The notes below the pieces were generated by a model that saw only the letters and a program-made list of their open reading frames with translations, was not told where the DNA came from and ran no database searches. From a virus (taxonomy: Duplodnaviria; Caudoviricetes), in the IMG/VR virus record IMGVR_UViG_3300029787_000038, positions 1 through 59,174 of that record: DNA of 59,174 nt; one strand, written 5' to 3'. Positions within the stretch are counted from its first letter, which is position 1, and every line of letters begins with the position of its first letter. Both the position numbers and the translations under genes were made by a program. Positions 1-59,174 of this stretch are shown here, in pieces.

Positions 1-2
1 TA

Positions 3-881
3 CGTTCTGACAGTGGGGGGACTGTTTCAGGACGTATCTCCATGAATAATCCTAATTTACAGCAAATCCCTGCTAGAGATCCAGAGATCGGACCTATGAT
101 ACGGAGTTTATTCCTACCTGAAAAGGACGAAAGTTGGGCGGCCATAGATTTCTCGCAACAAGAACCACGGCTCTTGGTTCATTATGCTCATGTGTATGGA
201 AAGGCGAAAGGTAGCCCGTTGCCCGCGATTGAAGAATTTGTCACGGCTTATAACGAAAACCCCGATATGGACTTTCACACGATGGTAGCTGAGATGGCTA
301 ACATACCCAGAAAGAAAGCAAAAACGATTAACTTGGGCATGATGTATGGCATGGGCGTCAATAAATTATCGGAACAGTTAGATGTTTCCTTGGACGAAGC
401 CAGAGAATTAATTGGTCAATACCATGCAAGAGTTCCGTTTGTTAAAAAATTAATGAACGGTGTTACCCAGAGGTTAAATGAAAAATCAAGTAGCGGTTCT
501 ATTCGATCCATACGGGGCAGAAAATGTCGATTTGATCTATGGGAGCCCGATACATTTAGTATGAACAAAGCACTACCGTACAAGGAAGCCCTGAAAGAAT
601 ATGGTGAAACCACCAAACTAAAACGAGCATATTCTTACAAAGCCCTTAATCGTTTAATCCAAGCGTCGGCTGCGGATATGACCAAACAATCTATGGTAAA
701 CCTCTATAAAGAAGGCATTATACCGCTTATTCAGATCCACGACGAGATAGCGGTTTCTGTAAAGGATAAAAATACAGCAAAAGATATTGCCAAGATTATG
801 GAAAATGCAGTATTGTTAGAAGTACCTAACAAATGTGATGTTGAAATCGGCCCTAGTTGGGGCGAGGCAAAAGCATTGTAA
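3..881 (+). CDS. polA: Family A DNA polymerase, C-terminal part (5'-truncated; version A)
   Basis: Motifs DFSQQEPR, KTINLGMMYG and QIHDE; frame open from base 3; colinear with 56021-56895 but diverged. Confidence 0.93.
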   Translation, partial: RSDSGGTVSGRISMNNPNLQQIPARDPEIGPMIRSLFLPEKDESWAAIDFSQQEPRLLVHYAHVYGKAKGSPLPAIEEFVTAYNENPDMDFHTMVAEMANIPRKKAKTINLGMMYGMGVNKLSEQLDVSLDEARELIGQYHARVPFVKKLMNGVTQRLNEKSSSGSIRSIRGRKCRFDLWEPDTFSMNKALPYKEALKEYGETTKLKRAYSYKALNRLIQASAADMTKQSMVNLYKEGIIPLIQIHDEIAVSVKDKNTAKDIAKIMENAVLLEVPNKCDVEIGPSWGEAKAL

Positions 882-911
882 GTTAGTTTTTCATATTCGT
901 CTCCCTATAAG

Positions 912-941
912 GCCCCGTTAAATCAAAAACGGGGCTTTTTT
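912..941 (+). terminator. Rho-independent terminator after polA (A)
   Basis: GCCCCGTT...AACGGGGC followed by T-run. Confidence 0.8.
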
Positions 942-942
942 C

Positions 943-971
943 TTGACATATTGTATAAACTCTTATATTTT
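943..971 (+). promoter_or_regulatory. Sigma70-type promoter for RHH gene (A)
   Basis: TTGACA-17-TATTTT, then AGGAG RBS. Confidence 0.7.
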
Positions 972-997
972 CTTAGACAATTATATAGGAGATACGT

Positions 998-1162
998 ATG
1001 GATACAACGAAATGGAAGAGTGTTTTGGTTCCGAAAGAAATTTATGATGAGATAAAAAAGCTTTCCAAGGACGAAGGACGCACCATTAGTGGTCAGTTGC
1101 GTTTAGTTTTTGATTATTATAAGAAAAAACAACCTCTCACGCCTTACAGTACCAAAGATTAA
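998..1162 (+). CDS. Ribbon-helix-helix-like DNA-binding protein (A), 54 aa, not in ORF track
   Basis: MDTTKWKSVLVPKEIYDEIKKLSKDEGRTISGQLR shows an RHH beta-alpha-alpha pattern; homolog of 57008-57190. Confidence 0.7.
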   Translation: MDTTKWKSVLVPKEIYDEIKKLSKDEGRTISGQLRLVFDYYKKKQPLTPYSTKD

Positions 1163-1650
1163 AAGATACCCATTGGTAACTGAGGAGGAGTTTGTTTAAT
1201 GCCACCCTCAAAATCTGCACTAGGAAACTCATTTTTAATGAGCGTTTGTATACCTGACATCAGACCCTGTACTTTGCCTTGAGATTCTTTAGCCGTATCC
1301 TGCATGGCTAACATATTCAGAAAAAACTGTAAGCCTTGTAATGGGCTTTGCGGTTGAACTATTTTTGGACCTGGGTAAAAAGGAGTTGATGTAGTAGGAG
1401 AGTAAGACGGCATTGTTTCAGCAATAGCTTCTTTTTGAGCGTCTAACATACCAATCGCGGGTTGACCCTCAACAGTTGAAGTTGTTTGAATATCTGGCGT
1501 CATTTCCGCACCTGAATCCATCAGTCCACCACCAAAATCCACGGTGTTTGTATTTAGCCCAGATGATATAGGTGCTTGTGCCTGTGTTTGAGCCTGCTCA
1601 AACAAACCACCGATACCGCCAATACCAAATTGATCCAAAGCCATTTTCAT
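1159..1650 (-). CDS. P/Q/G/M-rich low-complexity protein, homolog of 3868-4743
   Basis: Shares KVxGxMSGIxxL(I/V)xxxFP with the 3868-4743 protein. Confidence 0.7.
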   Translation of the reverse strand: MKMALDQFGIGGIGGLFEQAQTQAQAPISSGLNTNTVDFGGGLMDSGAEMTPDIQTTSTVEGQPAIGMLDAQKEAIAETMPSYSPTTSTPFYPGPKIVQPQSPLQGLQFFLNMLAMQDTAKESQGKVQGLMSGIQTLIKNEFPSADFEGGIKQTPPQLPMGIF

Positions 1651-1734
1651 ACGTCTATTATAATAAATTAAAAAAAAATTACAATTGTGAATTTTTTTCT
1701 TGCAATATCTTATAAAATCCTTTATAAGTAAAGT

Positions 1735-1842
1735 GTTTAGTTGAAAATTTTCTCAATTTAGACAACTCCGTAATAAAGACCTTGGTTTTGCCTGTAAAGA
1801 TTCCAAGGTCAACTCAGGGGGACACAACTGTCCCCCTTTTTT
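1735..1842 (+). ncRNA. Candidate anti-Shine-Dalgarno small RNA (A)
   Basis: Promoter TTGCAA-17-TATAAG (1700-1728); hairpin; single-stranded CAACTCCGTA (1763-1772); second hairpin GACCTTGG/CCAAGGTC; terminator AGGGGGACA/TGTCCCCCT-T; no ORF. Confidence 0.55.
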
Positions 1843-2008
1843 AATTCATTACTTCGTGACTGGTGGGTTCTTTTGGATAGTAAACTTCTACATAGGTTCC
1901 GCAGTTGGGACAGGTAAGGTTGGAAACAATTAAAAAATCACTTTCCTCATCATCAAGGTCGTGATCGCCACCCCAGATTAAGTTTGTGCCACAATGCCAA
2001 CAATTCAT
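1841..2008 (-). CDS. Small Zn-ribbon protein (CxxC...CxxC)
   Basis: MNCWHCG...LTCPNCG; alternative start at 2068. Confidence 0.7.
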   Translation of the reverse strand: MNCWHCGTNLIWGGDHDLDDEESDFLIVSNLTCPNCGTYVEVYYPKEPTSHEVMN

Positions 2009-2028
2009 GCTTCTAATATTAAAGACCT

Positions 2029-2199
2029 TTACAAGCCTTCTTCCCTTATTCTTTTTAATCTTTCCCATACTACCTCTTCATTGCAGACGTTGCAACACCT
2101 ACCCTCCTCGGCCAACGGCTCGGGGTTATGACTGTCCATGATGTGTGTGATCTTTTTCCCACAGATACAACAGTAAATAGGTTCTTTTAATCCATCCAT
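2029..2199 (-). CDS. Small Cys-rich phage protein, probably leaderless
   Basis: CCICG...HNPEPL...GRCCNVCN; TGcTATTCT -10 lies 6 nt before the ATG. Confidence 0.65.
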   Translation of the reverse strand: MDGLKEPIYCCICGKKITHIMDSHNPEPLAEEGRCCNVCNEEVVWERLKRIREEGL

Positions 2200-2291
2200 A
2201 ATAAGAGAATAGCAGACTTTATTATAAAAGCAAATATTATTTGACATTATCTTAGTTATTATTATATAATCTTATAAACGGAGAACTACCC

Positions 2292-2446
2292 ATGACAGAT
2301 CAAAAAAAAAAATTGAAGATCAGTTTTCAATCAACAATTTTTTAAAGAAAAACAAAAACTGGTCTAATCAACATCGTGAAAAAAATGGAGGGACTTTAGT
2401 TAAAAAATATAAAAAATACATGAAAAAAAAACAGGAGTTAAAATAA
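2292..2446 (+). pseudogene. Small basic ORF interrupted by a frameshift in an A11 tract
   Basis: Promoter TTGACA..TATAAT, ACGGAG RBS, ATG 2292; one extra A restores a frame ending TAATG at the next start. Confidence 0.45.
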
Positions 2447-2634
2447 TGTTAAAATTTACAAAAGAAGAAACAGAAATGTTGTTAAAATCAGGGGTACAGT
2501 ATGAACGGGCTGTAAATCTGTATGGACCAAATGTTGATGGTCTATCTAAAAAAGAAGTAAAAGGTATTAAATCTGGATTGTTGAAGTTACAAACTTATTG
2601 GGAAAAAAATTTTAATAGGTATTCCGAGGAATAA
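2446..2634 (+). CDS. Hypothetical early protein
   Basis: AGGAG RBS; ORF track. Confidence 0.65.
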   Translation: MLKFTKEETEMLLKSGVQYERAVNLYGPNVDGLSKKEVKGIKSGLLKLQTYWEKNFNRYSEE

Positions 2635-2636
2635 AT

Positions 2637-2894
2637 ATGCAATATTATTTCTACGTTATCCCAGTCATGGGATCTAATGAGGAAAAAAATTGTTTAGTAT
2701 GTAACGATATTTTAATTAATAATGGAACTTGGGGTTACTGCTTTTCTTGTTGGAATAGTAACAAAGTAATGAAAAAAGTAACTTGGGAAAAATATTGGAT
2801 GAATAATGATGCAAGTACAAAAGTTTTTATTAGTAGACCATGTATTACAACAAATACAGGACGACGTATTAAAAGGAGATATGACGGCCATTGA
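2637..2894 (+). CDS. Hypothetical protein with CxxC pairs
   Basis: GAGGA RBS; CLVC and CFSC. Confidence 0.5.
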   Translation: MQYYFYVIPVMGSNEEKNCLVCNDILINNGTWGYCFSCWNSNKVMKKVTWEKYWMNNDASTKVFISRPCITTNTGRRIKRRYDGH

Positions 2895-2956
2895 AACATT
2901 AATTTCAGAGCTGCCCGTCGATACACTCAAAGCTTTTCTTTCGGAGGTAAAACAAA

Positions 2957-3214
2957 ATGAAAAAGATAATTGTTAGTCCCATTGTAAAGGACGCCATGAA
3001 AATTTTTTCGTTAGAAAGAGTATACAACCCTTATTTAAAATGGGCTGACGATCCCGATCCAATGGACTTTGACCATCTTTATGAAAAAGACTTGGTAGCT
3101 GACGCCAAGAAGTTATTAGAAGATAAAGATAAAATTTTTGATCCAGAAGATGTCAGACGATTAAAAGATTTTGTTCGTAAGTGGGATGTTGAAGATCTAC
3201 CTGATCCCGACTAG
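2957..3214 (+). CDS. Hypothetical acidic early protein
   Basis: GGAGGT RBS. Confidence 0.65.
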   Translation: MKKIIVSPIVKDAMKIFSLERVYNPYLKWADDPDPMDFDHLYEKDLVADAKKLLEDKDKIFDPEDVRRLKDFVRKWDVEDLPDPD

Positions 3215-3220
3215 TTGGTT

Positions 3221-3325
3221 TTGTCACAACTGTCACAGGTGTTTTGTAACTTTATATAAATAAAATTATTTAAAAAAGTTTTGTTTTAGCTTGTGACAAG
3301 TGTGACAAGTATTTAGGTGCGACAA
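3221..3325. repeat. Inverted iteron-like array around an AT-rich core (A), origin-like
   Basis: TGTCACA x2, AT core with TTTATATAAA, then TGTGACAAG x2. Confidence 0.55.
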
Positions 3326-3369
3326 TTTGACACATTTATTCGTATGAGATTCTATGATAAAATCTTATA

Positions 3370-3399
3370 TGGTTTAAAAACCAGGTTGCTCTTTGACAT
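3370..3399 (+). promoter_or_regulatory. Hairpin plus boxA-like antitermination site (A)
   Basis: TGGTT/AACCA hairpin then TGCTCTTTGACAT; rrn boxA consensus is TGCTCTTTAACA. Confidence 0.6.
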
Positions 3400-3464
3400 T
3401 GATAGAAACTTTATTCGTAGACAGTAGTCTGTCGGTGATCGAAGATTATTTTAACTAAACATAC

Positions 3465-3573
3465 GGAGTTGAAAATGAAAAAATCATATTGTGGTTTAAT
3501 TTTAGAGCATGGACACACTAGTTACGATTGGAAAAAATACACAGTAAAAGATCGTATCTTCCAATGTGTTAAA
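3465..3573 (+). repeat. 109-bp direct repeat of the window end (59066-59174), 1 mismatch
   Basis: Direct comparison; T3510 vs C59111. Confidence 0.95.
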
Positions 3574-3867: not shown

Positions 3868-4743
3868 TTAAAACGGAGAGTTCTCCATATTAAAGTTATA
3901 GGCTAAGTTGATTAACGGATCTTCAACCTGCTTTTGAATGGGCATCGGAAATACAGGATTGTATTCCATCGCAGGATTGTACGCAGGACTAGCAGGATCA
4001 CTTGGATCTAAACCTCCACTTTCATCCATAGCAGGTTTATAAACATTGTAATTTATAGCAGGGTTGTATTTCATCATATCTACAGTAGGATCTATCGTAG
4101 CACTCACTGGACCAATATCAGCTATTTTAGTACCAAATAGTTTATCTCCAAAATATTTATCCTTTGCAATGTCATCTTCAAACGAAAGTTGTTGAGGTTG
4201 ACCCATCGAAGCTTTTTGATTAGCAACAATATCTGTCATTTTAGTACCAAATAGTTTATCTCCAATACTTTCACCACCCTGCATAGGTTGAGGTATTGCA
4301 GGAGGATCACCCATAATTTGAGGTGTTGTTATTTGACTAAGATCACCCATCATAGGAGGTTGCATAGGTGTTGCAGGGATTTCAGCAGGCGTTGTAAAAG
4401 GAGCTGCGGGTATGGCCGTACCACCCAAGGACGCTATGCCTTGACCTAGCTGACCCGTAGTAGACATACCGCCACCAGACATACCGCCACCCATATTAGG
4501 AAACGCTTCGTTGACCAAGGACCGTATACCACTCATCACACCAGATACTTTTTGTATGGCCTCCTGTTGCATAGGTTGCATGGCCTGATCTACTTGGCTC
4601 ATGGCCCGCTGACCGAGGAACTGTTCAATCAGAGGAAACGGATCGTTTTGGATCTGTTGCATAGTGTTTTGAAACCCCTGTTGCATTTGTTGCAACGGAG
4701 TCATCATTTGTTGAAACGAAGGTGCTATAGGTTTTGCGGTCAT
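3868..4743 (-). CDS. P/Q/M/G-rich disordered protein (291 aa), leaderless; possible internal virion protein
   Basis: Minus-strand TTGTTA-17-TATAAT-7nt-ATG places the start at 4743; GIASL motif; internal 28-bp duplication 4124-4151/4238-4265. Confidence 0.75.
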   Translation of the reverse strand: MTAKPIAPSFQQMMTPLQQMQQGFQNTMQQIQNDPFPLIEQFLGQRAMSQVDQAMQPMQQEAIQKVSGVMSGIRSLVNEAFPNMGGGMSGGGMSTTGQLGQGIASLGGTAIPAAPFTTPAEIPATPMQPPMMGDLSQITTPQIMGDPPAIPQPMQGGESIGDKLFGTKMTDIVANQKASMGQPQQLSFEDDIAKDKYFGDKLFGTKIADIGPVSATIDPTVDMMKYNPAINYNVYKPAMDESGGLDPSDPASPAYNPAMEYNPVFPMPIQKQVEDPLINLAYNFNMENSPF

Positions 4744-4796
4744 AAAAAGAATTATAAACAATCCCAGATAAAATAACAATAAATATTGTTGTTGTC

Positions 4797-4958
4797 GGTT
4801 ACGGTTACTTATATAGCTGAGAAAATAAAAAAAAATATTTTTAGTGAAAAATAGGTGTAACCAGTGTAACCGTGTAACCTTTGGTACAAAACCCCTTATA
4901 TATAAGGACAAAACTAGGTTACATAAAAGGTTACACCTTGAAATACAAAAATGTAACC
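4797..4958. repeat. Inverted iteron-like array (B): origin or packaging site candidate
   Basis: GTGTAACC x3 (4855-4879), palindrome CCTTATATATAAGG (4894-4907), AGGTTACA x2 (4916-4935). Confidence 0.6.
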
Positions 4959-5069
4959 CTCGATTTGGCTTAATGTGAATATTTTTCATTTTTTTTTAAA
5001 AAATATTTTTCTGGAATATATAAAGAAAGTATCGTACATATAAGAAAAGACTTATAGTTGGAGCAGAGT

Positions 5070-5753: not shown

Positions 5754-6075
5754 GAATTGGGCAGGCCAAGGTATTCCTGATCTTCTTATTTGTGATGAAA
5801 AGGGTTTGTTTCATTTTATCGAACTAAAGTTTGTAAAGGCTAACGCAGTTAATCTTAGCCCGCATCAGGTAGCTTGGTTGACAAGACATAAGCATAGTAG
5901 CTCTTGGGTGCTTATAAAGAAACAGAACAATCCAACTACTACGGCCGAGTTATATTTATATAAAGCGGATCAGGCTATTGATCTTAAAACAAATGGATTA
6001 AAGACCGAGCCAATAGGAGGTTGGAAAGCACCTTTTGAATGGGAAAAATTGTGGGACTTGATTTATCCCATATAA
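5638..6075 (+). CDS. PD-(D/E)XK nuclease (VRR-NUC/Holliday-junction resolvase-like)
   Basis: RIEN...GIPDL...FIELK...LSPHQVAW. Confidence 0.8.
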   Translation: MVNKPLILPQTSKKEAGLYQQLKSAIKRSKRNLVLTRIENWAGQGIPDLLICDEKGLFHFIELKFVKANAVNLSPHQVAWLTRHKHSSSWVLIKKQNNPTTTAELYLYKADQAIDLKTNGLKTEPIGGWKAPFEWEKLWDLIYPI

Positions 6076-6109
6076 TTCTATATCATAAACGAATCACAAT
6101 TACATGGAG
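6058..6109 (+). promoter_or_regulatory. Early promoter with ATCCCATA box and ACATGGAG RBS
   Basis: TTGATT-17-TATCAT. Confidence 0.6.
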
Positions 6110-6979: not shown

Positions 6980-6987
6980 AATTACTA

Positions 6988-7047
6988 GGGGGCTTGACTA
7001 GCCCCCTTTTTAATTTATTATATATGGGATAAGTAACATACATGGAG
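6988..7047 (+). promoter_or_regulatory. Terminator hairpin with embedded -35, TATGGGAT box and ACATGGAG RBS
   Basis: GGGGGCT-TGACT-AGCCCCC-T5; TTGACT-16-TATTAT. Confidence 0.65.
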
Positions 7048-7763: not shown

Positions 7764-7829
7764 AAGGCGGGCTATTTACAACCCGCCTTTTTTAATGCTA
7801 TATATATGGGATAAATTATATACATGGAG
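7764..7829 (+). promoter_or_regulatory. Terminator hairpin with embedded -35, TATGGGAT box and ACATGGAG RBS
   Basis: AAGGCGGG-ctatttacaa-CCCGCCTT-T; TTTACA in the loop. Confidence 0.6.
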
Positions 7830-8651: not shown

Positions 8652-8740
8652 AAAAGCTTGCAATATAAGAGAAATAATATATTTTAATAGGGCGGGGTAG
8701 TTTTTCCCGCCTTATTTTATTAATTAACATGGAGTAAAAA

Positions 8741-21717: not shown

Positions 21718-21789
21718 TTGTATAGTAGTCATATTAACTTCTGACAATCGCATGGTGCGATTGACATAGCCAAGACAGGAGATGATATT

Positions 21790-22506
21790 ATGGCTGTACA
21801 TTTTACCGGACCAATACTTTTCGCAGGAAAAGACGGTCAAAGAAAGTGGTTTGAAAACCTCCCAATAGACAAAAACCCTGATTATCTAGTTTACATGGAT
21901 GATTTTACAGGGGTCGCTTTAGACAATACAAACGACTGGACAGTTGTGAAAGATTCCAGTGCCTCTGCAGCCATTGCTGCTGATGTTGTAAACGGAGCGG
22001 TTACATTAAGCTCTCAAGCAACAACAGATAACGATGGTGCTTCTATCCAAGGTAATGAAATCTTCGCAGTATCTTCAGGAAGAGATATTTGGTTTGAAAC
22101 CAAACTTACCCCAACAGATGCTGAGGGGGATGCAATGGATATTTGTATAGGTTTAACTGTAAACTTTGCAACTAATCCAGAAGCTATGCTTACCGCAGCA
22201 GACCGTGTTGTTTTTCAAGTAGATGATGGTGATAGCAATATTGATTGTGTGACTGAAAAAGACGGCACTGCAACAACAACAGATTCTGGGGTTGATATTG
22301 CAAGTGGTACTGCAGTAACACTTGGTTTTCATATCAAAGGGACAGGAAGTGTAGAATTTTTTGTAAATAGAAACTTAGTAGCTACACATACTGCTAACAT
22401 TCCAGACGATGAAAACTTAGCTCTTGGAGCAATGGAACTTTCAGGTTCTGCAACAGGAACTAAATCAATGAACATTGATTATATGTTTGCTGCACAGAAC
22501 AGATAA
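21790..22506 (+). CDS. Putative structural beta-sandwich protein
   Basis: Beta-rich T/D/G composition; late operon. Confidence 0.65.
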   Translation: MAVHFTGPILFAGKDGQRKWFENLPIDKNPDYLVYMDDFTGVALDNTNDWTVVKDSSASAAIAADVVNGAVTLSSQATTDNDGASIQGNEIFAVSSGRDIWFETKLTPTDAEGDAMDICIGLTVNFATNPEAMLTAADRVVFQVDDGDSNIDCVTEKDGTATTTDSGVDIASGTAVTLGFHIKGTGSVEFFVNRNLVATHTANIPDDENLALGAMELSGSATGTKSMNIDYMFAAQNR

Positions 22507-55018: not shown

Positions 55019-56895
55019 CAATGTTTGCACCCAAGAGCGAATGGGTGCCCCCTTATGAACTACCTGATCTCAGTCACTGTAAGCAAATTGCCATTGACGT
55101 AGAAACCAGAGATCCGAACATCAAATCTAAAGGACCGGGTTGGCCTACAGGAGACGGTATGATTGTAGGATATGCCATTGCCACCGAATCATGGTCACAT
55201 TATATCCCTGTTAAACACGTCGGCGGGGGTAATTTAGATGAAAGAATCGTCAATAGGTGGTTAAAAAAGGTTTTTGAGAGCCCTGCAGATAAAATTATGC
55301 ACAATGCACAGTATGATGCAGGGTGGATTAGACAAGAGGGCTTTACTTTAAACGGTAGAATCATTGATACAATGGTCATTGCCTCGTTATTGGACGAAAA
55401 CCGCTTTAGTTATAGCCTAAATGCTCTTTCTTACGACTATTTAAGCAAAACCAAGTCCGAAAAAGAATTAAATGAAGCTGCATCTGCCTTTGGTGTCGAT
55501 CCAAAAGCTGAAATGTGGAAGTTACCTGCCATGTTTGTAGGTCCTTACGCTACCGACGACGCAAAACTGACCTTGGACCTTTGGAATTACTTTTCTGTCG
55601 AGATTAACAAGCAAGGATTGTCAAAAATAGCTGATTTAGAGTTAAATTTACTGCCCTGTTTGATTGATATGACATGGAGAGGTGTTAGAGTGGACCTTGA
55701 TAAGGCCGAATCACTTAGAAACACCCTCCTCAAGCGTGAAAATGAAACTTTACACAAGATAAAAAAGCTTACGGGGCTTGAAATAGAGGTTTGGGCGGCT
55801 CAATCTATAGCCAAAGCCTTTGACAAACTTAATATTAAGTACGAAAGAACTGAAAAAGGTGTGCCCTCCTTTACCAAGTCTTTCCTGAAAGATCATCCAC
55901 ACGAGCTTTCTAAATTAATTGTGGACGTTAGGAACCTTAACAAGACCAGTGGTACGTTTATCAACACAATTATGAAGCATTGCCACAAAGACGGACGCAT
56001 TCATAGTCATATTAACCAGATACGCTCCGACCAAGGGGGCACGGTATCGGGTAGAATATCCATGAACAATCCTAATTTACAGCAGATCCCCGCTAGAGAT
56101 CCTGAATTAGGTCCTATGATTCGTTCTTTGTTCCTACCTGAAGAGGGAGAGCAGTGGGGTTCTATTGATTTCTCGCAACAGGAGCCACGGATCTTGGTTC
56201 ACTACGCTCATGTCTTTGGTGTATCCAGAAAAGTACCGCTTAAAGGCGCAAAAGAGTTTGTCGAAGCTTATAATGACGACCCGACTACCGATTTTCATAC
56301 GATGGTTGCAGAAATGGCACAGATACCGCGTAAGTCCGCCAAGACCATCAACCTCGGCATGATGTACGGCATGGGTGTCAACAAGTTATCCGAGCAATTA
56401 GGCATAGAAGTAGAGGAAGCCAAGTCCATTATTCGTCAGTACCACGAGCGAGTACCCTTTGTGAAGGGCTTGATGAACGGGGTAATGAACCATTTAAATG
56501 AACGAGATAGCTCAGGCTCCGTAAGATCACTACTCGGCCGAAAATGCCGCTTTGATTTATGGGAACCTGACCGCTTTGAAATGAACAAGGCTATGCCTTT
56601 TGAGCAAGCTGTACAGGAATATGGTAAAACCACCAAGCTCAAGCGGGCTTATACCTACAAAGCCCTAAACAGGCTTATTCAAGCGTCGGCCGCGGACATG
56701 ACAAAGAAAGCTATGGTCGATATTTACCAATCAGGTCGCGTCCCTCTTATACAAATACACGACGAGATAGCGATTTCTGTCAGAGATAAACCAGATGCAG
56801 AAAGTATTTCCCGAATCATGGAAAATGCAGTACCTTTAGAGGTGCCTAACAAATGTGACGTGGAGGTGGGTCGCAGTTGGGGAACCGCTCAATGA
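55003..56895 (+). CDS. polA: Family A DNA polymerase with 3'-5' exonuclease (version B)
   Basis: Exo DVET, HNAQYD, YATDD; polymerase motifs A, B, C. Confidence 0.95.
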   Translation: MSLQLTMFAPKSEWVPPYELPDLSHCKQIAIDVETRDPNIKSKGPGWPTGDGMIVGYAIATESWSHYIPVKHVGGGNLDERIVNRWLKKVFESPADKIMHNAQYDAGWIRQEGFTLNGRIIDTMVIASLLDENRFSYSLNALSYDYLSKTKSEKELNEAASAFGVDPKAEMWKLPAMFVGPYATDDAKLTLDLWNYFSVEINKQGLSKIADLELNLLPCLIDMTWRGVRVDLDKAESLRNTLLKRENETLHKIKKLTGLEIEVWAAQSIAKAFDKLNIKYERTEKGVPSFTKSFLKDHPHELSKLIVDVRNLNKTSGTFINTIMKHCHKDGRIHSHINQIRSDQGGTVSGRISMNNPNLQQIPARDPELGPMIRSLFLPEEGEQWGSIDFSQQEPRILVHYAHVFGVSRKVPLKGAKEFVEAYNDDPTTDFHTMVAEMAQIPRKSAKTINLGMMYGMGVNKLSEQLGIEVEEAKSIIRQYHERVPFVKGLMNGVMNHLNERDSSGSVRSLLGRKCRFDLWEPDRFEMNKAMPFEQAVQEYGKTTKLKRAYTYKALNRLIQASAADMTKKAMVDIYQSGRVPLIQIHDEIAISVRDKPDAESISRIMENAVPLEVPNKCDVEVGRSWGTAQ

Positions 56896-56916
56896 CCTGT
56901 ATACCATCTCAAACTT

Positions 56917-56955
56917 GTGCCCTCCTTCCTCCCTTTCGAGGAGGGCACCCTTTTT
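56917..56955 (+). terminator. Terminator after polA (B)
   Basis: GTGCCCTCCT...AGGAGGGCAC then T-run. Confidence 0.7.
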
Positions 56956-57007
56956 CCCTTGAATAATCCAATAAAATCTTATATATTCTCATTAAAGGAG
57001 ATGCAAA

Positions 57008-57190
57008 ATGGATACAACTAAATGGAAAAGTGTGCTTGTTCCTATCGAAGTGTACAGAGAATTGAAGGCCCTGTCCCGCGAACAGGGGCGCACGATGGGG
57101 GGACAGTTAAAGATCATGTATCAAGTCTATGAAGCCTATCAAAATAAAGAATTAACCTTTTCTACGGAACCACCTGAAAAAAGAGTTTGA
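57008..57190 (+). CDS. Ribbon-helix-helix-like DNA-binding protein (B)
   Basis: KSVLVPIEVYRELKALSREQGRTMGGQL; promoter TTGAAT-17-TATATT. Confidence 0.7.
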   Translation: MDTTKWKSVLVPIEVYRELKALSREQGRTMGGQLKIMYQVYEAYQNKELTFSTEPPEKRV

Positions 57191-57221
57191 CAGATCCCAT
57201 AAAATCTTTTACGGTTAAGTC

Positions 57222-57292
57222 ACTCCATGTGATAAAGAGTCGTTGTTAATCCTATGATTTGTTCAAACCAACCTGACAACGGCTCTTTTTTT
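57222..57292 (+). ncRNA. Candidate anti-Shine-Dalgarno small RNA (B)
   Basis: TTGACA-17-TACGGT; 5' ACTCCATGT; stem AAAGAGTCGTTGTTA/TGACAACGGCTCTTT plus T-run. Confidence 0.6.
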
Positions 57293-57297
57293 ATGTC

Positions 57298-57391
57298 TTG
57301 ACAGCTATCCCATAAAAGCGCATACTAATACTGTTACAAGTTCAAGTTAGGTTTAAGCTCAGTTGCCTAATGGTAGGCTTGGGCTTGTAAC
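57298..57391 (+). promoter_or_regulatory. Promoter and structured 5' leader
   Basis: TTGACA-17-CATACT; stem GTTACAAGTTCAAG/CTTGGGCTTGTAAC. Confidence 0.55.
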
Positions 57392-57409
57392 TTTAGTATG
57401 GAGATACAA

Positions 57410-57559
57410 ATGAATAAAAAAAAATCATTAGCCGAGCAGTTTGGCATTCACAGGTTTTACAAACCCAACAAAGAACACACTAGTCGTTGGGTTTGGAGAA
57501 AACTACCCGCTCGTCTATTTAAAAAAAAAGAGAGGAAAAAGGATGACAAAAAAACTTAG
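57410..57559 (+). CDS. Small basic protein (49 aa), not in track
   Basis: ATGGAG RBS. Confidence 0.55.
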   Translation: MNKKKSLAEQFGIHRFYKPNKEHTSRWVWRKLPARLFKKKERKKDDKKT

Positions 57560-57728
57560 TCCTGCAGAAGAGTATGAACTAAATTTTTTAAGAAAACAGG
57601 TAGATCACTACGAAACCAAGGTCTTTGAATTAAAAAGACATAAAGACATAGCTAGGGATCACGAGAGAGCAAGAGAAGAACTTAAAACTTATGTATTGAA
57701 ATTAAGAGGATTAGGGAGGGAAGTATGA
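57543..57728 (+). CDS. Hypothetical coiled protein
   Basis: GAGGA RBS before ATG 57543. Confidence 0.65.
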   Translation: MTKKLSPAEEYELNFLRKQVDHYETKVFELKRHKDIARDHERAREELKTYVLKLRGLGREV

Positions 57729-57877
57729 CAGAGAGTGAAAAGAAAGAAGAGTTCTTTAAACACTTAAATAACGTACTGGCGGATAAGTTACTGAAGCCCG
57801 CTATTATATTGGAATACATTAATCAATATAAAATTAGCATGGGAGAGAGTAATGACCAATCAAATAATGATGTATAG
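57725..57877 (+). CDS. Hypothetical protein (50 aa)
   Basis: ATGA coupling; GGAGG RBS. Confidence 0.5.
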   Translation: MTESEKKEEFFKHLNNVLADKLLKPAIILEYINQYKISMGESNDQSNNDV

Positions 57878-58046
57878 CCTTCTGACCGTCATGCACTTCA
57901 CCACGCCCGAAGAGTGTCAAATGTGGAGCGATAAGATCTATGGCGAGGGCTATAAGTGTTTTATATCTTACAAACAAAAAGAGTGGTATATTAAAGAACC
58001 GTTGCCCCGACCAGATATTATTGTTAATATGGGAAAAGAGGAGTAG
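57852..58046 (+). CDS. Hypothetical protein
   Basis: ORF track; GGAG RBS. Confidence 0.55.
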   Translation: MTNQIMMYSLLTVMHFTTPEECQMWSDKIYGEGYKCFISYKQKEWYIKEPLPRPDIIVNMGKEE

Positions 58047-58050
58047 TCAG

Positions 58051-58290
58051 ATTTTAAAAGCAAACAAACTTGATGATGCACTTATTGGAATTGGCAGAAG
58101 ATGTTCCCAAGAGGACGTTCTTGTCTATGATTTTAATAAAGCCGTTAAGATCCTTGTAGATCGTGACCAAATGACAGAGGAAGAAGCCGTTGAGTATTTA
58201 GAGTTTAATACCGTAGGTGCATGGGTCGGCGAAGAAACACCCGTGTTTGTCTATCCAATGACAATGGAGGAAATAGATGAGATGCAATAG
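58051..58290 (+). CDS. Small acidic phage protein, apparent ATT start
   Basis: GAGGAG-7nt-ATT TTA AAA GCA; LDDALIG...EEAVEYLEFNTVGAWVGEETP. Confidence 0.6.
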   Translation: MLKANKLDDALIGIGRRCSQEDVLVYDFNKAVKILVDRDQMTEEEAVEYLEFNTVGAWVGEETPVFVYPMTMEEIDEMQ

Positions 58291-58477
58291 ATGCGGCTGC
58301 GAAGCCAAAACCGTTTATGTTCATGGGCACGAACAATGCTCACAGTGTCATTCCGTTGTAGAGGACTGTTGTCAGGGGATCACGGTCCAAGAAGTTTCCA
58401 AAGATAATTATTACGTCGAAAAGCAATCCTGTAAATACAATGAGGTGGACCCTCATTTTGTTGTTGGTAAAGAGTGA
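58277..58477 (+). CDS. Small Zn-finger protein
   Basis: CNRC...VHGHEQCSQC...DCCQG. Confidence 0.7.
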   Translation: MRCNRCGCEAKTVYVHGHEQCSQCHSVVEDCCQGITVQEVSKDNYYVEKQSCKYNEVDPHFVVGKE

Positions 58478-58631
58478 TAACTCTTTTTTATGTCAGCGTC
58501 GTCATTGCTATACTTTTCATCCTAGTCGGGATTGTATGGATAGCTATACATAAGTGACATTTTTATCACAGTTAAAATTTTTTTATCTAAAGGGGTTTTA
58601 ATGTATGGGATTTTATGCGATAATAAATATA

Positions 58632-58664
58632 GTGATTCGTCATGGATCACCTGCTCTTTGACAT
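58632..58664 (+). promoter_or_regulatory. Hairpin plus boxA-like antitermination site (B)
   Basis: GTGATTC/GGATCAC hairpin then TGCTCTTTGACAT. Confidence 0.6.
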
Positions 58665-58767
58665 CGTCAATCTTTTTGGTTCCGTAGGGGAAACCCGATT
58701 ATCGGTTAGCACCAACCTAAGACTTAGTAATGGTGCTAAGTATCAACCCCAAACAAAGGAGGTCTTT

Positions 58768-59022
58768 ATGGCTTATCCAATTTGGGAGGGTGATCTTGAT
58801 TTTTTTATGAATCAAGAGCTTAACGAGCGTATTAGCGAAGCACTCGCTAATAACTCTGACCCTCAAAATTCTGATCGCGACATTCGTCGTGCAGAAGCTC
58901 TCAAATTTCGCAAAGAAATTTGGGATAACAACCACCACAAATATTCCCGTCATCATATCAAAATGATGAAAAAAGGTTTATTTGGTGGACCTTTTACCTA
59001 CGAGATGTTTGCTCGTGGGTAA
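58768..59022 (+). CDS. Hypothetical early protein (84 aa)
   Basis: AAGGAGGT RBS before ATG 58768. Confidence 0.7.
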   Translation: MAYPIWEGDLDFFMNQELNERISEALANNSDPQNSDRDIRRAEALKFRKEIWDNNHHKYSRHHIKMMKKGLFGGPFTYEMFARG

Positions 59023-59031
59023 CAACCAAAC

Positions 59032-59054
59032 GGGGCAGGCAGTGCCTGCCCCTT
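59032..59054 (+). terminator. Stem-loop/terminator
   Basis: GGGGCAGGCA-G-TGCCTGCCCC-TT. Confidence 0.6.
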
Positions 59055-59075
59055 AATTTAAACATGGAGTTGAAA

Positions 59076-59174
59076 ATGAAAAAATCATATTGTGGTTTAA
59101 TTTTAGAGCACGGACACACTAGTTACGATTGGAAAAAATACACAGTAAAAGATCGTATCTTCCAATGTGTTAAA
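59076..59174 (+). CDS. Partial second copy of the 3475-3831 gene
   Basis: Near-identical sequence; truncated by the window end. Confidence 0.85.
   Translation, partial: MKKSYCGLILEHGHTSYDWKKYTVKDRIFQCVK

Follow-up and report, generated by a model that had tools for sequence, protein, structure and literature searches.

What does the compact element at positions 1700-1842 of this phage contig encode, and which genes could it act on? The window (the whole stretch of DNA that was analysed, 59,174 bases) is an entire assembly that consists of a single contig. An initial annotation had proposed that two versions of a small RNA, A near the start of the contig and B near its end, carry different seeds that match the ribosome binding sites (RBSs) of their own version. 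All of the strings that it quoted lie where it placed them, and the core of its interpretation is borne out by relatives of the phage; its comparison of genes within the window, its seed length, and its notion of phage-specific addressing had to be corrected. As judged from sequence, the element at 1700-1842 most likely encodes a small RNA of about 105 nt that acts in trans, and a second version of about 70 nt most likely lies at 57187-57292.

The putative A and B small RNA units

Units of this kind read as a sigma-70-like promoter, a 5' hairpin, an unpaired linker composed of an anti-Shine-Dalgarno core with 4-8 bases of flank, and then an intrinsic terminator. The putative promoter of the A unit (1700-1728, plus strand), as read from the sequence, has a -35 box TTGCAA (1700-1705), a 17-nt spacer (1706-1722), and a -10 box TATAAG (1723-1728); TTGTGA (1684-1689) with TATCTT (1706-1711) is an alternative. 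The sequence of the former is identical in two related contigs, L001 and L002, and relatives share its layout with stronger -10 boxes. It is missing from the list returned by a consensus promoter scan because its weak -10 box has a G instead of a T at position 6.

The RNA fold of the A unit contains a 5' hairpin (1734-1764, plus strand) and a second hairpin (1778-1810, plus strand) that is specific to A-type elements and is kept in L002, where a C-to-U change gives a G·U pair. Between them lies the unpaired seed linker CAACUCCGUAAUAAAGA (1763-1779, plus strand), which joins the anti-Shine-Dalgarno CUCC to the class-specific flank GUAAUAA, so the seed does sit between two hairpins as had been proposed. 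This linker is identical in L001, L002, and a third contig, L158, and it is complementary to RBSs of the window and of the A-type contigs defined below. The unit ends with an intrinsic terminator (1816-1843, plus strand) made of a 9-bp GC-rich stem (1816-1837) and a U run. This terminator works one way, and a minus-strand terminator is not listed here. Minus-strand ORFs flank the A unit on both sides, and the terminator thus has nothing else on the plus strand to terminate. The fold of 1733-1845 has a predicted energy of -36.7 kcal/mol (z = -4.86), which none of 200 shuffled sequences equals or betters.

The promoter of the B small RNA (57187-57215, plus strand) consists of TTGACA, 17 nt containing ATCCCATA, and then TACGGT. 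The RNA itself (57221-57292, plus strand) would carry the seed (U)CACUCCAUGUGAU at or near its 5' end, followed by a long terminator hairpin and a U run, and its element folds with z = -5.03. A relative, L083, keeps CUCCAUGU in a changed context. Promoter quality is good in the B unit and in relatives, but weak in the A unit with its TATAAG. The two units nevertheless resemble each other as the initial annotation had noticed: the spacers of A (1706-1722) and B (57193-57209) are alike, and ATAAAGA follows both seeds. This string is not a mere shared trailer, however. The A seed extends into AUAAAG, as the target RBSs UUAUUACGGAG and UUUAUUAUGGAG in A-type contigs show, and the A linker therefore pairs beyond the 10 nt first assigned to it.

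Four AT-rich loci in relatives (L133 6656-6730, L130 6616-6690, L127 2813-2874, and L128 8180-8241) have a promoter almost identical to that of B (TTGACG.ATCCCATAAAATCGC.TAC). Their short RNA shows CUCC in the loop of a small 5' hairpin.

Two variants in one contig

Bases 1-862 of the window, the end of a family-A DNA polymerase gene, are 70.6% identical in DNA to bases 56021-56882, and the contig ends overlap over a 118-nt stretch (3456-3573 and 59059-59174) that is 97.5% identical. This imperfect overlap implies that 1-3455 is a version A and 56021-59058 a version B of one genome segment. The contig is either a join of two related phages, as in a chimeric assembly, or a natural recombinant. 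L001 and L002 are 93-97% identical to version A, the RNA unit included, and the RBSs at 6102, 7040, 7822, and 8727 of the window body carry ACAUGGAG, which fits the B seed and makes the body B-type.

The join bears on a claim that had been central to the initial annotation, namely that one gene occurs in the window behind two RBS flanks, each tracking the local seed. The gene behind the RBS UUACGGAGUU in L001 and L002 differs from the gene at window position 3475, and in all three true A-type contigs (L001/L143, L002, and L158) another gene follows the RBS of the 3462-3471 type. A contig bridging position 3477 was not found among public contigs, which neither confirms nor rejects the join between A and the body, and a pattern search of viral contigs returned no relative of the 118-aa gene at 3475. 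The pair within the window may therefore be a product of the assembly join; the claim stands for orthologues in relatives, to which we return below.

Candidate target RBSs in the window

The A seed CAACTCCGTA occupies 1763-1772, as first reported, and its exact complement TACGGAGTTG lies 3 nt before the ATG at 3475. This predicted A target, the RBS UACGGAGUUG (3462-3471, plus strand), offers 10 nt of complementarity and corresponds to UUACGGAGUU in the L001 and L002 homologue. A further A gene had been said to use ACGGAG. The string is present (2278-2283, plus strand) before the ATG at 2293 of the first gene behind a perfect promoter (2241-2270), but the match to the A seed is only 6 nt long and is accordingly weak.

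Five RBSs are candidate targets of the B seed. The RBS AUUACAUGGAG (6099-6109, plus strand) could form 11 bp, including one G·U, and precedes the first gene behind a promoter at 6058. The RBS UACAUGGAG occurs twice on the plus strand, at 7039-7047 before the first gene behind a terminator/promoter and at 7821-7829 before a 270-aa gene, the A-type orthologues of which carry UUAUUAUGGAG or UUAUUACGGAG. The RBS ACAUGGAGU also occurs twice on the plus strand, at 8727-8735 before a DUF932 gene and at 59062-59070 before the contig-end copy of the 118-aa gene. For this last site, the longer string ACATGGAGTTG that had been matched to the B seed is found at 59062-59072, but only the 9 nt of ACAUGGAGU pair with it. 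The word ACATGGAG has nine occurrences in the window where 1.63 are expected, a number reached by none of 100 shuffles. The tagged RBSs of the window are the first ones after promoter-like sites or terminators, and the products of the tagged genes are mostly of unknown function (DUF932, phrog_11344, and orphans).

Several minor features surround these sites. Terminator hairpins at 6985-7030 and 7765-7812 contain a -35-like hexamer (TTGACT and TTTACA, respectively) in or next to the loop, and a -10 box and TATGGGATAA come immediately after them, which suggests that terminator and next promoter overlap here. The tagged RBS at 8727 comes right after a GC hairpin that has a U-rich tail and a promoter-like site (TTGCAA...) upstream of it (8660-8735), which gives the DUF932 gene an attenuator-like leader. 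In public contigs of three runs and in L001 (8252), the 156-157 bases at 2276-2433 that hold the first small gene are replaced by GTTTATTACGA(G), which provides the following gene with an upstream match to the A seed of 9+6 bp, interrupted by a bulge.

Orthologous genes that switch tags

Relatives of both versions permit a comparison that does not depend on the join. The A-type contigs are L143 and L157 (both of which are the L001 contig with more flanking sequence), L002, and L158. The B-type set comprises the window body, L083/L156, and L160, the latter two of which have the seed CAACUCCAUGUAG in a changed context. Three or four RBSs in the A-type contigs read UUAC- or UUAU-GGAG and fit the A linker over 10-12 nt, and none is a ACATGGAG RBS; B-type contigs use ACAU- or AUAU-GGAG. 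The lack of ACATGGAG RBSs in A-type contigs answers the refutation test that the initial annotation had set on the RBS usage of early phage A genes.

Two orthologous genes switch tags together with the seed. A 136-aa gene (89.7% identical) is preceded by UUACGGAGUU in L143 and by ACAUGGAGUU in L083. The 270-aa gene (82-83% identical) carries the A-type tags UUAUUAUGGAG, UUUAUUAUGGAG (L157) or UUAUUACGGAG (L158) and the B-type tags AUACAUGGAG (window and L156) or AUAUAUGGAG (L160). For both genes each RBS fits the seed of its own contig if G·U wobbles are included. Where tags of one class differ by C or U opposite a seed G, a G·U pair keeps the helix, as RNA pairing predicts. The argument from natural covariation, that a different A seed fitting A-type RBSs speaks for function, is upheld by this pair of genes.

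Shuffling of the seed flanks indicates how often such matches arise by chance. With CUCC fixed, the observed two RBS sites with at least 10 paired bases are reached by 1 of 1000 shuffled A seeds on L143 and by 4 of 1000 on L002. The value observed for the B-like seed on L083 is reached by 1 of 1000 flank shuffles, and the five sites of at least 9 bases observed for the B seed on the window body are reached by 5 of 300. Exchanging the seeds gives no sites at all, either for the A seed on the B body (47 sites) or for the B seed on L143 (16 sites). No tag is present on the orthologues of a small ribbon-helix-helix-like gene or of the terminase small subunit.

A family of units in related phages

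Judged by the polymerase, the closest of the named phages have identities of about 55% (023Pt_psg01 and DSL-LC04) and of 52% and 50% (the Pelagibacter phages HTVC023P and HTVC027P, respectively), and a collection of viral contigs holds at least 594 with a closer polymerase than these. Eighty polymerase loci were kept, which are 75-80% identical apart from two at 100%. We searched for further units by rule, requiring a promoter, a seed-like word, and a terminator outside long ORFs and downstream of the polymerase. A unit is found by this rule in 85 of 151 sources. Removal by hand of 14 sites, which lay inside promoters (L008 and L012) or were second, weaker hits in a locus, leaves 79 units with 54 distinct sequences. 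They share position and layout: the unit follows the DNA polymerase and ribbon-helix-helix-like genes, and promoter, hairpin, seed, and terminator succeed each other. The small ribbon-helix-helix-like ORF comes after the polymerase in 76 of the 80 loci of relatives; its protein in the window matches Pfam RHH_5 with E = 2e-4, below the family cut-off.

In an alignment of thirteen members with a GUAG seed flank, UUCCCGUAGU is invariant and unpaired, with a hairpin of 8 bp on one side and a terminator of 12 bp on the other. In 5 of the 20 predicted pairs of this alignment both sides have changed and the pair is kept. The initial annotation had suggested a covariance model across relatives, and the one built from these members (R1) finds other seed classes with E-values from 4e-06 to about 5 but does not detect the elements of the window: neither the A or B unit nor L001 and L002 match at E up to 10, and L083, L158, and L160 do not match at E up to 1. 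Given this absence of detectable homology, the membership of the AT-rich A- and B-type units rests on position, architecture, and seed logic.

The unit is not seen by eye in the intergenic stretches of the named phages 023Pt_psg01, DSL-LC04, HTVC023P, and HTVC027P, and R1 matches nothing in those of HTVC023P and HTVC027P at E up to 10 or in those of DSL-LC04 and 023Pt_psg01 at E up to 1. Likewise, no DNA match among the phage records of GenBank was obtained with the A region, with the B region, or with the unit of a relative. Repeated private RBS flanks do occur in two of these phages, AACTAACAAAG(C)GAG in HTVC023P (L081 6560-6580, 7270-7300, and 8790-8810) and ACATACAGGAG in DSL-LC04 (L152, about 21050 and 21290); a small RNA complementary to them was not seen in the stretches examined.

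Bins of relatives in a genome collection point to no consistent host. Relatives at 74-78% fall in bins labelled Verrucomicrobiales, Halieaceae, and Rhodobacteraceae, and those at 56-59% in Pelagibacteraceae single-cell genomes. The RNA is not described in the literature searched on HTVC023P-type phages, pelagiphage small RNAs, and anti-Shine-Dalgarno phage RNAs, subscription journals being outside the scope of this search.

Covariation of seeds and tags by class

Across these relatives tag and linker covary between lineages, and the linker is predicted to pair over 9-12 nt with a private tag on several RBSs of its own phage. Individual phages have several RBSs with 10-12 nt of complementarity to their own seed, such as CAACUACGGGAG (twice in L036), CAACUACGGAGG (L031), CUAUUACGGGAG (L043), and UUAUUACGGAG (L143). 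The tag has a fixed position 6-9 nt before start codons. By class, the 3' flank of the seed has its reverse complement in the 4-mer that is commonest on the 5' side of the Shine-Dalgarno G-run. ACAU is found at 11 of 79 sites in the AUGU class and at 4 of 617 elsewhere (p = 2e-8), CUAC at 58 of 554 sites versus none of 142 (p = 9e-7), and UUAC at 5 of 33 sites versus 14 of 663 (p = 1e-3), but RBS sites are not phylogenetically independent and these p-values consequently overstate the case.

The anti-Shine-Dalgarno core of the seed and the core of the RBS agree without exception. Phages with UUCCC seeds have 38 CUAC-GGGAG sites and no GGAG, those with CUCC seeds have 23 CUAC-GGAG sites and no GGGAG, and those with CUCU seeds have three AGAG sites. 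Tagged RBSs also tend to be promoter-proximal across the family, with a promoter-like site within 120 nt upstream of 37 of 73 tagged and 121 of 604 untagged RBSs (p = 5e-8).

The covariation has limits. Past the 4-nt flank it is weak, since only 15 of 29 sites for UUG seeds have a compatible CAA or UAA and 3 of 12 sites for UGA seeds have UCA. The GUAG flank is common to 68 of the 79 loci with a curated seed (44 of the 54 distinct sequences). Addressing is thus by class and not by phage, which departs from the phage-specific scheme first put forward. The minor seed classes GUGU (one locus) and AUAG (two loci) have no matching tags, and no clear target is present in the sequences examined for L077, L041, L019, L028, L067, L101, and L133. 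Duplex energies of the whole RNA, which ignore accessibility, did not separate targets from non-targets, and this measure was dropped.

Proposed mechanism and alternatives

These observations suggest that in uncultured aquatic phages related to the abundant HTVC023P type the element probably encodes a small RNA that acts in trans and keeps promoter-proximal phage genes from being translated. The RNA would be made early, from the type of promoter found at its targets, and would accumulate. It could then pair with the RBS of the first gene in several early or middle transcription units, covering the Shine-Dalgarno sequence together with the private flank and so preventing ribosomes from loading. 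The targeted operons would shut down and the RNA would serve as a timer, since sharing a promoter type with its targets would make such a repressor act with a delay. Phages of the same class that co-infect the cell might be hit as well. We infer the repressive direction from the pairing over the Shine-Dalgarno sequence only, and repression, its timing, and a role in competition between co-infecting relatives are conjectural to that extent.

An alternative that we regard as unlikely keeps the RNA and its pairing with the tags but gives it a different main role, either competition and exclusion between related phages, similar to c4 heteroimmunity, or protection and activation of messages. Base-pairing over a Shine-Dalgarno sequence normally blocks translation instead of activating it, which argues against the activating variant. 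Competition would account for the different seed and tag classes of the two variants within one assembly, and class-level covariation is the trace that an arms race between co-infecting relatives is expected to leave; c4 pairing around the RBS is the basis of heteroimmunity between P1 and P7 according to a passage of PMC12197685. However, with the GUAG flank shared by 68 of 79 loci most relatives would cross-react, and no immunity or antirepressor genes are recognised among the 13 proteins scanned.

It is very improbable that there is no functional RNA and that the region is an intergenic terminator with a divergent promoter region, the complementarity reflecting a DNA or RNA motif that is read by a protein and has one copy reversed. 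No RNA run is among the sequencing runs listed for this stretch, the -10 box of A is poor, and these promoters do carry a different conserved motif, ATCCCATA/TATGGGAT, in either orientation. Yet the reverse copy is always an unpaired stretch downstream of a promoter, flanked by a hairpin and a terminator, and the tag keeps its fixed distance of 6-9 nt from start codons. In addition, a DNA copy of the tag would give CUCCC, but the largest class of seeds has UUCCC, which fits GGGAG only by way of a G·U pair, and tags vary between C and U opposite a seed G. A motif read by a protein as DNA explains neither pattern.

Slightly less probable still is a cis-acting leader or attenuator in which read-through into the next operon lets the anti-Shine-Dalgarno mask the first RBS of the same molecule, for although the unit of B and of many relatives precedes a tagged first RBS of the same strand by 60-120 nt, a separate strong promoter stands between unit and first target, the genes next to the A unit in A-type phages are on the opposite strand and converge with it, and the tagged RBSs are dispersed kilobases away behind promoters of their own.

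Comparison with known regulators

The trans-acting small RNA favoured here has precedents among phage RNAs. The c4 RNA is processed from the same transcript as its icd-ant target, and the CI RNA of P4 is related to it. As a phage RNA with exposed stretches that pair with the RBS region of phage messages to block translation, c4 of P1 and P7 offers a close parallel, and it is described as the basis of their heteroimmunity in the relevant passage of PMC12197685 (citing Citron and Schuster 1990). In both cases natural differences in the complementary sequences separate related phages, and the exposed RBS-complementary stretch with lineage-specific covariation is a c4-like trait of the present RNA. 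Unlike c4, which acts on the single icd-ant operon of temperate phages, the present unit has a putative promoter and a terminator of its own and three to six dispersed first-cistron targets, and no lysogeny genes are seen. None of the 13 window proteins scanned matches an antirepressor or integrase family, and the A unit is convergent with its neighbours.

Covariance models place the RNA outside the C4 family. No Rfam C4 match is found in the window or in five relatives. In Rfam 15, C4 does not reach the gathering score anywhere in the window and no family matches either unit; the five relatives have no match at E up to 1. At E up to 10, the regions 1600-1900 and 57100-57420 give no C4 match, the best being rliF with 23 bits against a 60-bit cut-off. 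The proposed mode of action is like that known for c4 and sar, and the RNA is not a C4 family member by model.

The sar RNA of P22 is transcribed opposite its single target and hence is fully complementary to it. It is 68-69 nt long and reduces the translation of ant by pairing with the translation start region of this message, as a section of PMC12197685 reports. The present RNA is likewise a small phage RNA predicted to pair at the translation start of phage messages, but its gene lies away from its many targets, with which it has no more than a 9-12 nt seed in common. In T4, the RegA protein shuts off the translation of many early messages in the course of infection by binding to their start regions. 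We use it as a working analogy, with an RNA seed and a private RBS tag here in place of a protein. RsaE/RoxS and CcsR are bacterial trans-acting small RNAs with C-rich or anti-Shine-Dalgarno seeds. The phage unit resembles them as a putative independent gene with an unpaired C-rich seed, an intrinsic terminator, and several candidate RBS targets; it differs from these chromosomal regulators of host genes in that it is phage-borne, would target genes of that same phage, and carries a class-specific flank in addition. A conserved unpaired seed with complementary, covarying targets, the general mark of trans-encoded small RNAs, is present.

Implications

Tag and small RNA may together form an RNA-based addressing layer over the Shine-Dalgarno sequence that divides very abundant, probably lytic aquatic phages into classes of translational incompatibility, a suggestion that we offer as speculative. 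If it holds, a phage could both time the shut-off of its own first cistrons and silence a later competitor of the same class, and a switch of class (GUAG, GUAA, or AUGU; CC, CCC, or CU) would be an escape route. The known RNA regulators that phages direct at themselves come from a few temperate model phages. Here an entire clade, with at least 594 viral contigs that have a closely related polymerase, appears to carry such an RNA, its multi-gene regulon can be read straight from the sequence, and nature has already done the compensatory-mutation experiment. Confirmation would supply a rule by which first cistrons and early operons could be marked in the genomes of uncultured phages, a compact and portable pair of orthogonal RNA/RBS switches from the A, B, and GUAG classes, and a testable idea on interference between co-infecting relatives.

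Other features of the contig

Two minus-strand ORFs, 1159-1650 and 3868-4989, encode low-complexity proteins rich in Gly, Gln, Pro, and Met that match no family. The first of them sits between the ribbon-helix-helix-like gene and the RNA unit in A-type phages only. The sole Rfam match at the gathering score in the window is a Mu-gpT-DE RNA at 21739-21792 on the plus strand (50.6 bits, cut-off 49).

The 8-mer ATCCCATA or its reverse TATGGGAT has seven occurrences in the window, compared with 1.94 expected; the sites are 6065, 7023 (minus), 7805 (minus), 57194, 57307, 58604 (minus), and the A spacer at 1706-1722. Promoter-like sites of the early region hold six of the seven copies, which occupy either the beginning of the spacer, next to the -35 box, or the start of transcription. 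The motif marks such promoters in relatives too, and it may be the operator of the conserved ribbon-helix-helix-like protein.
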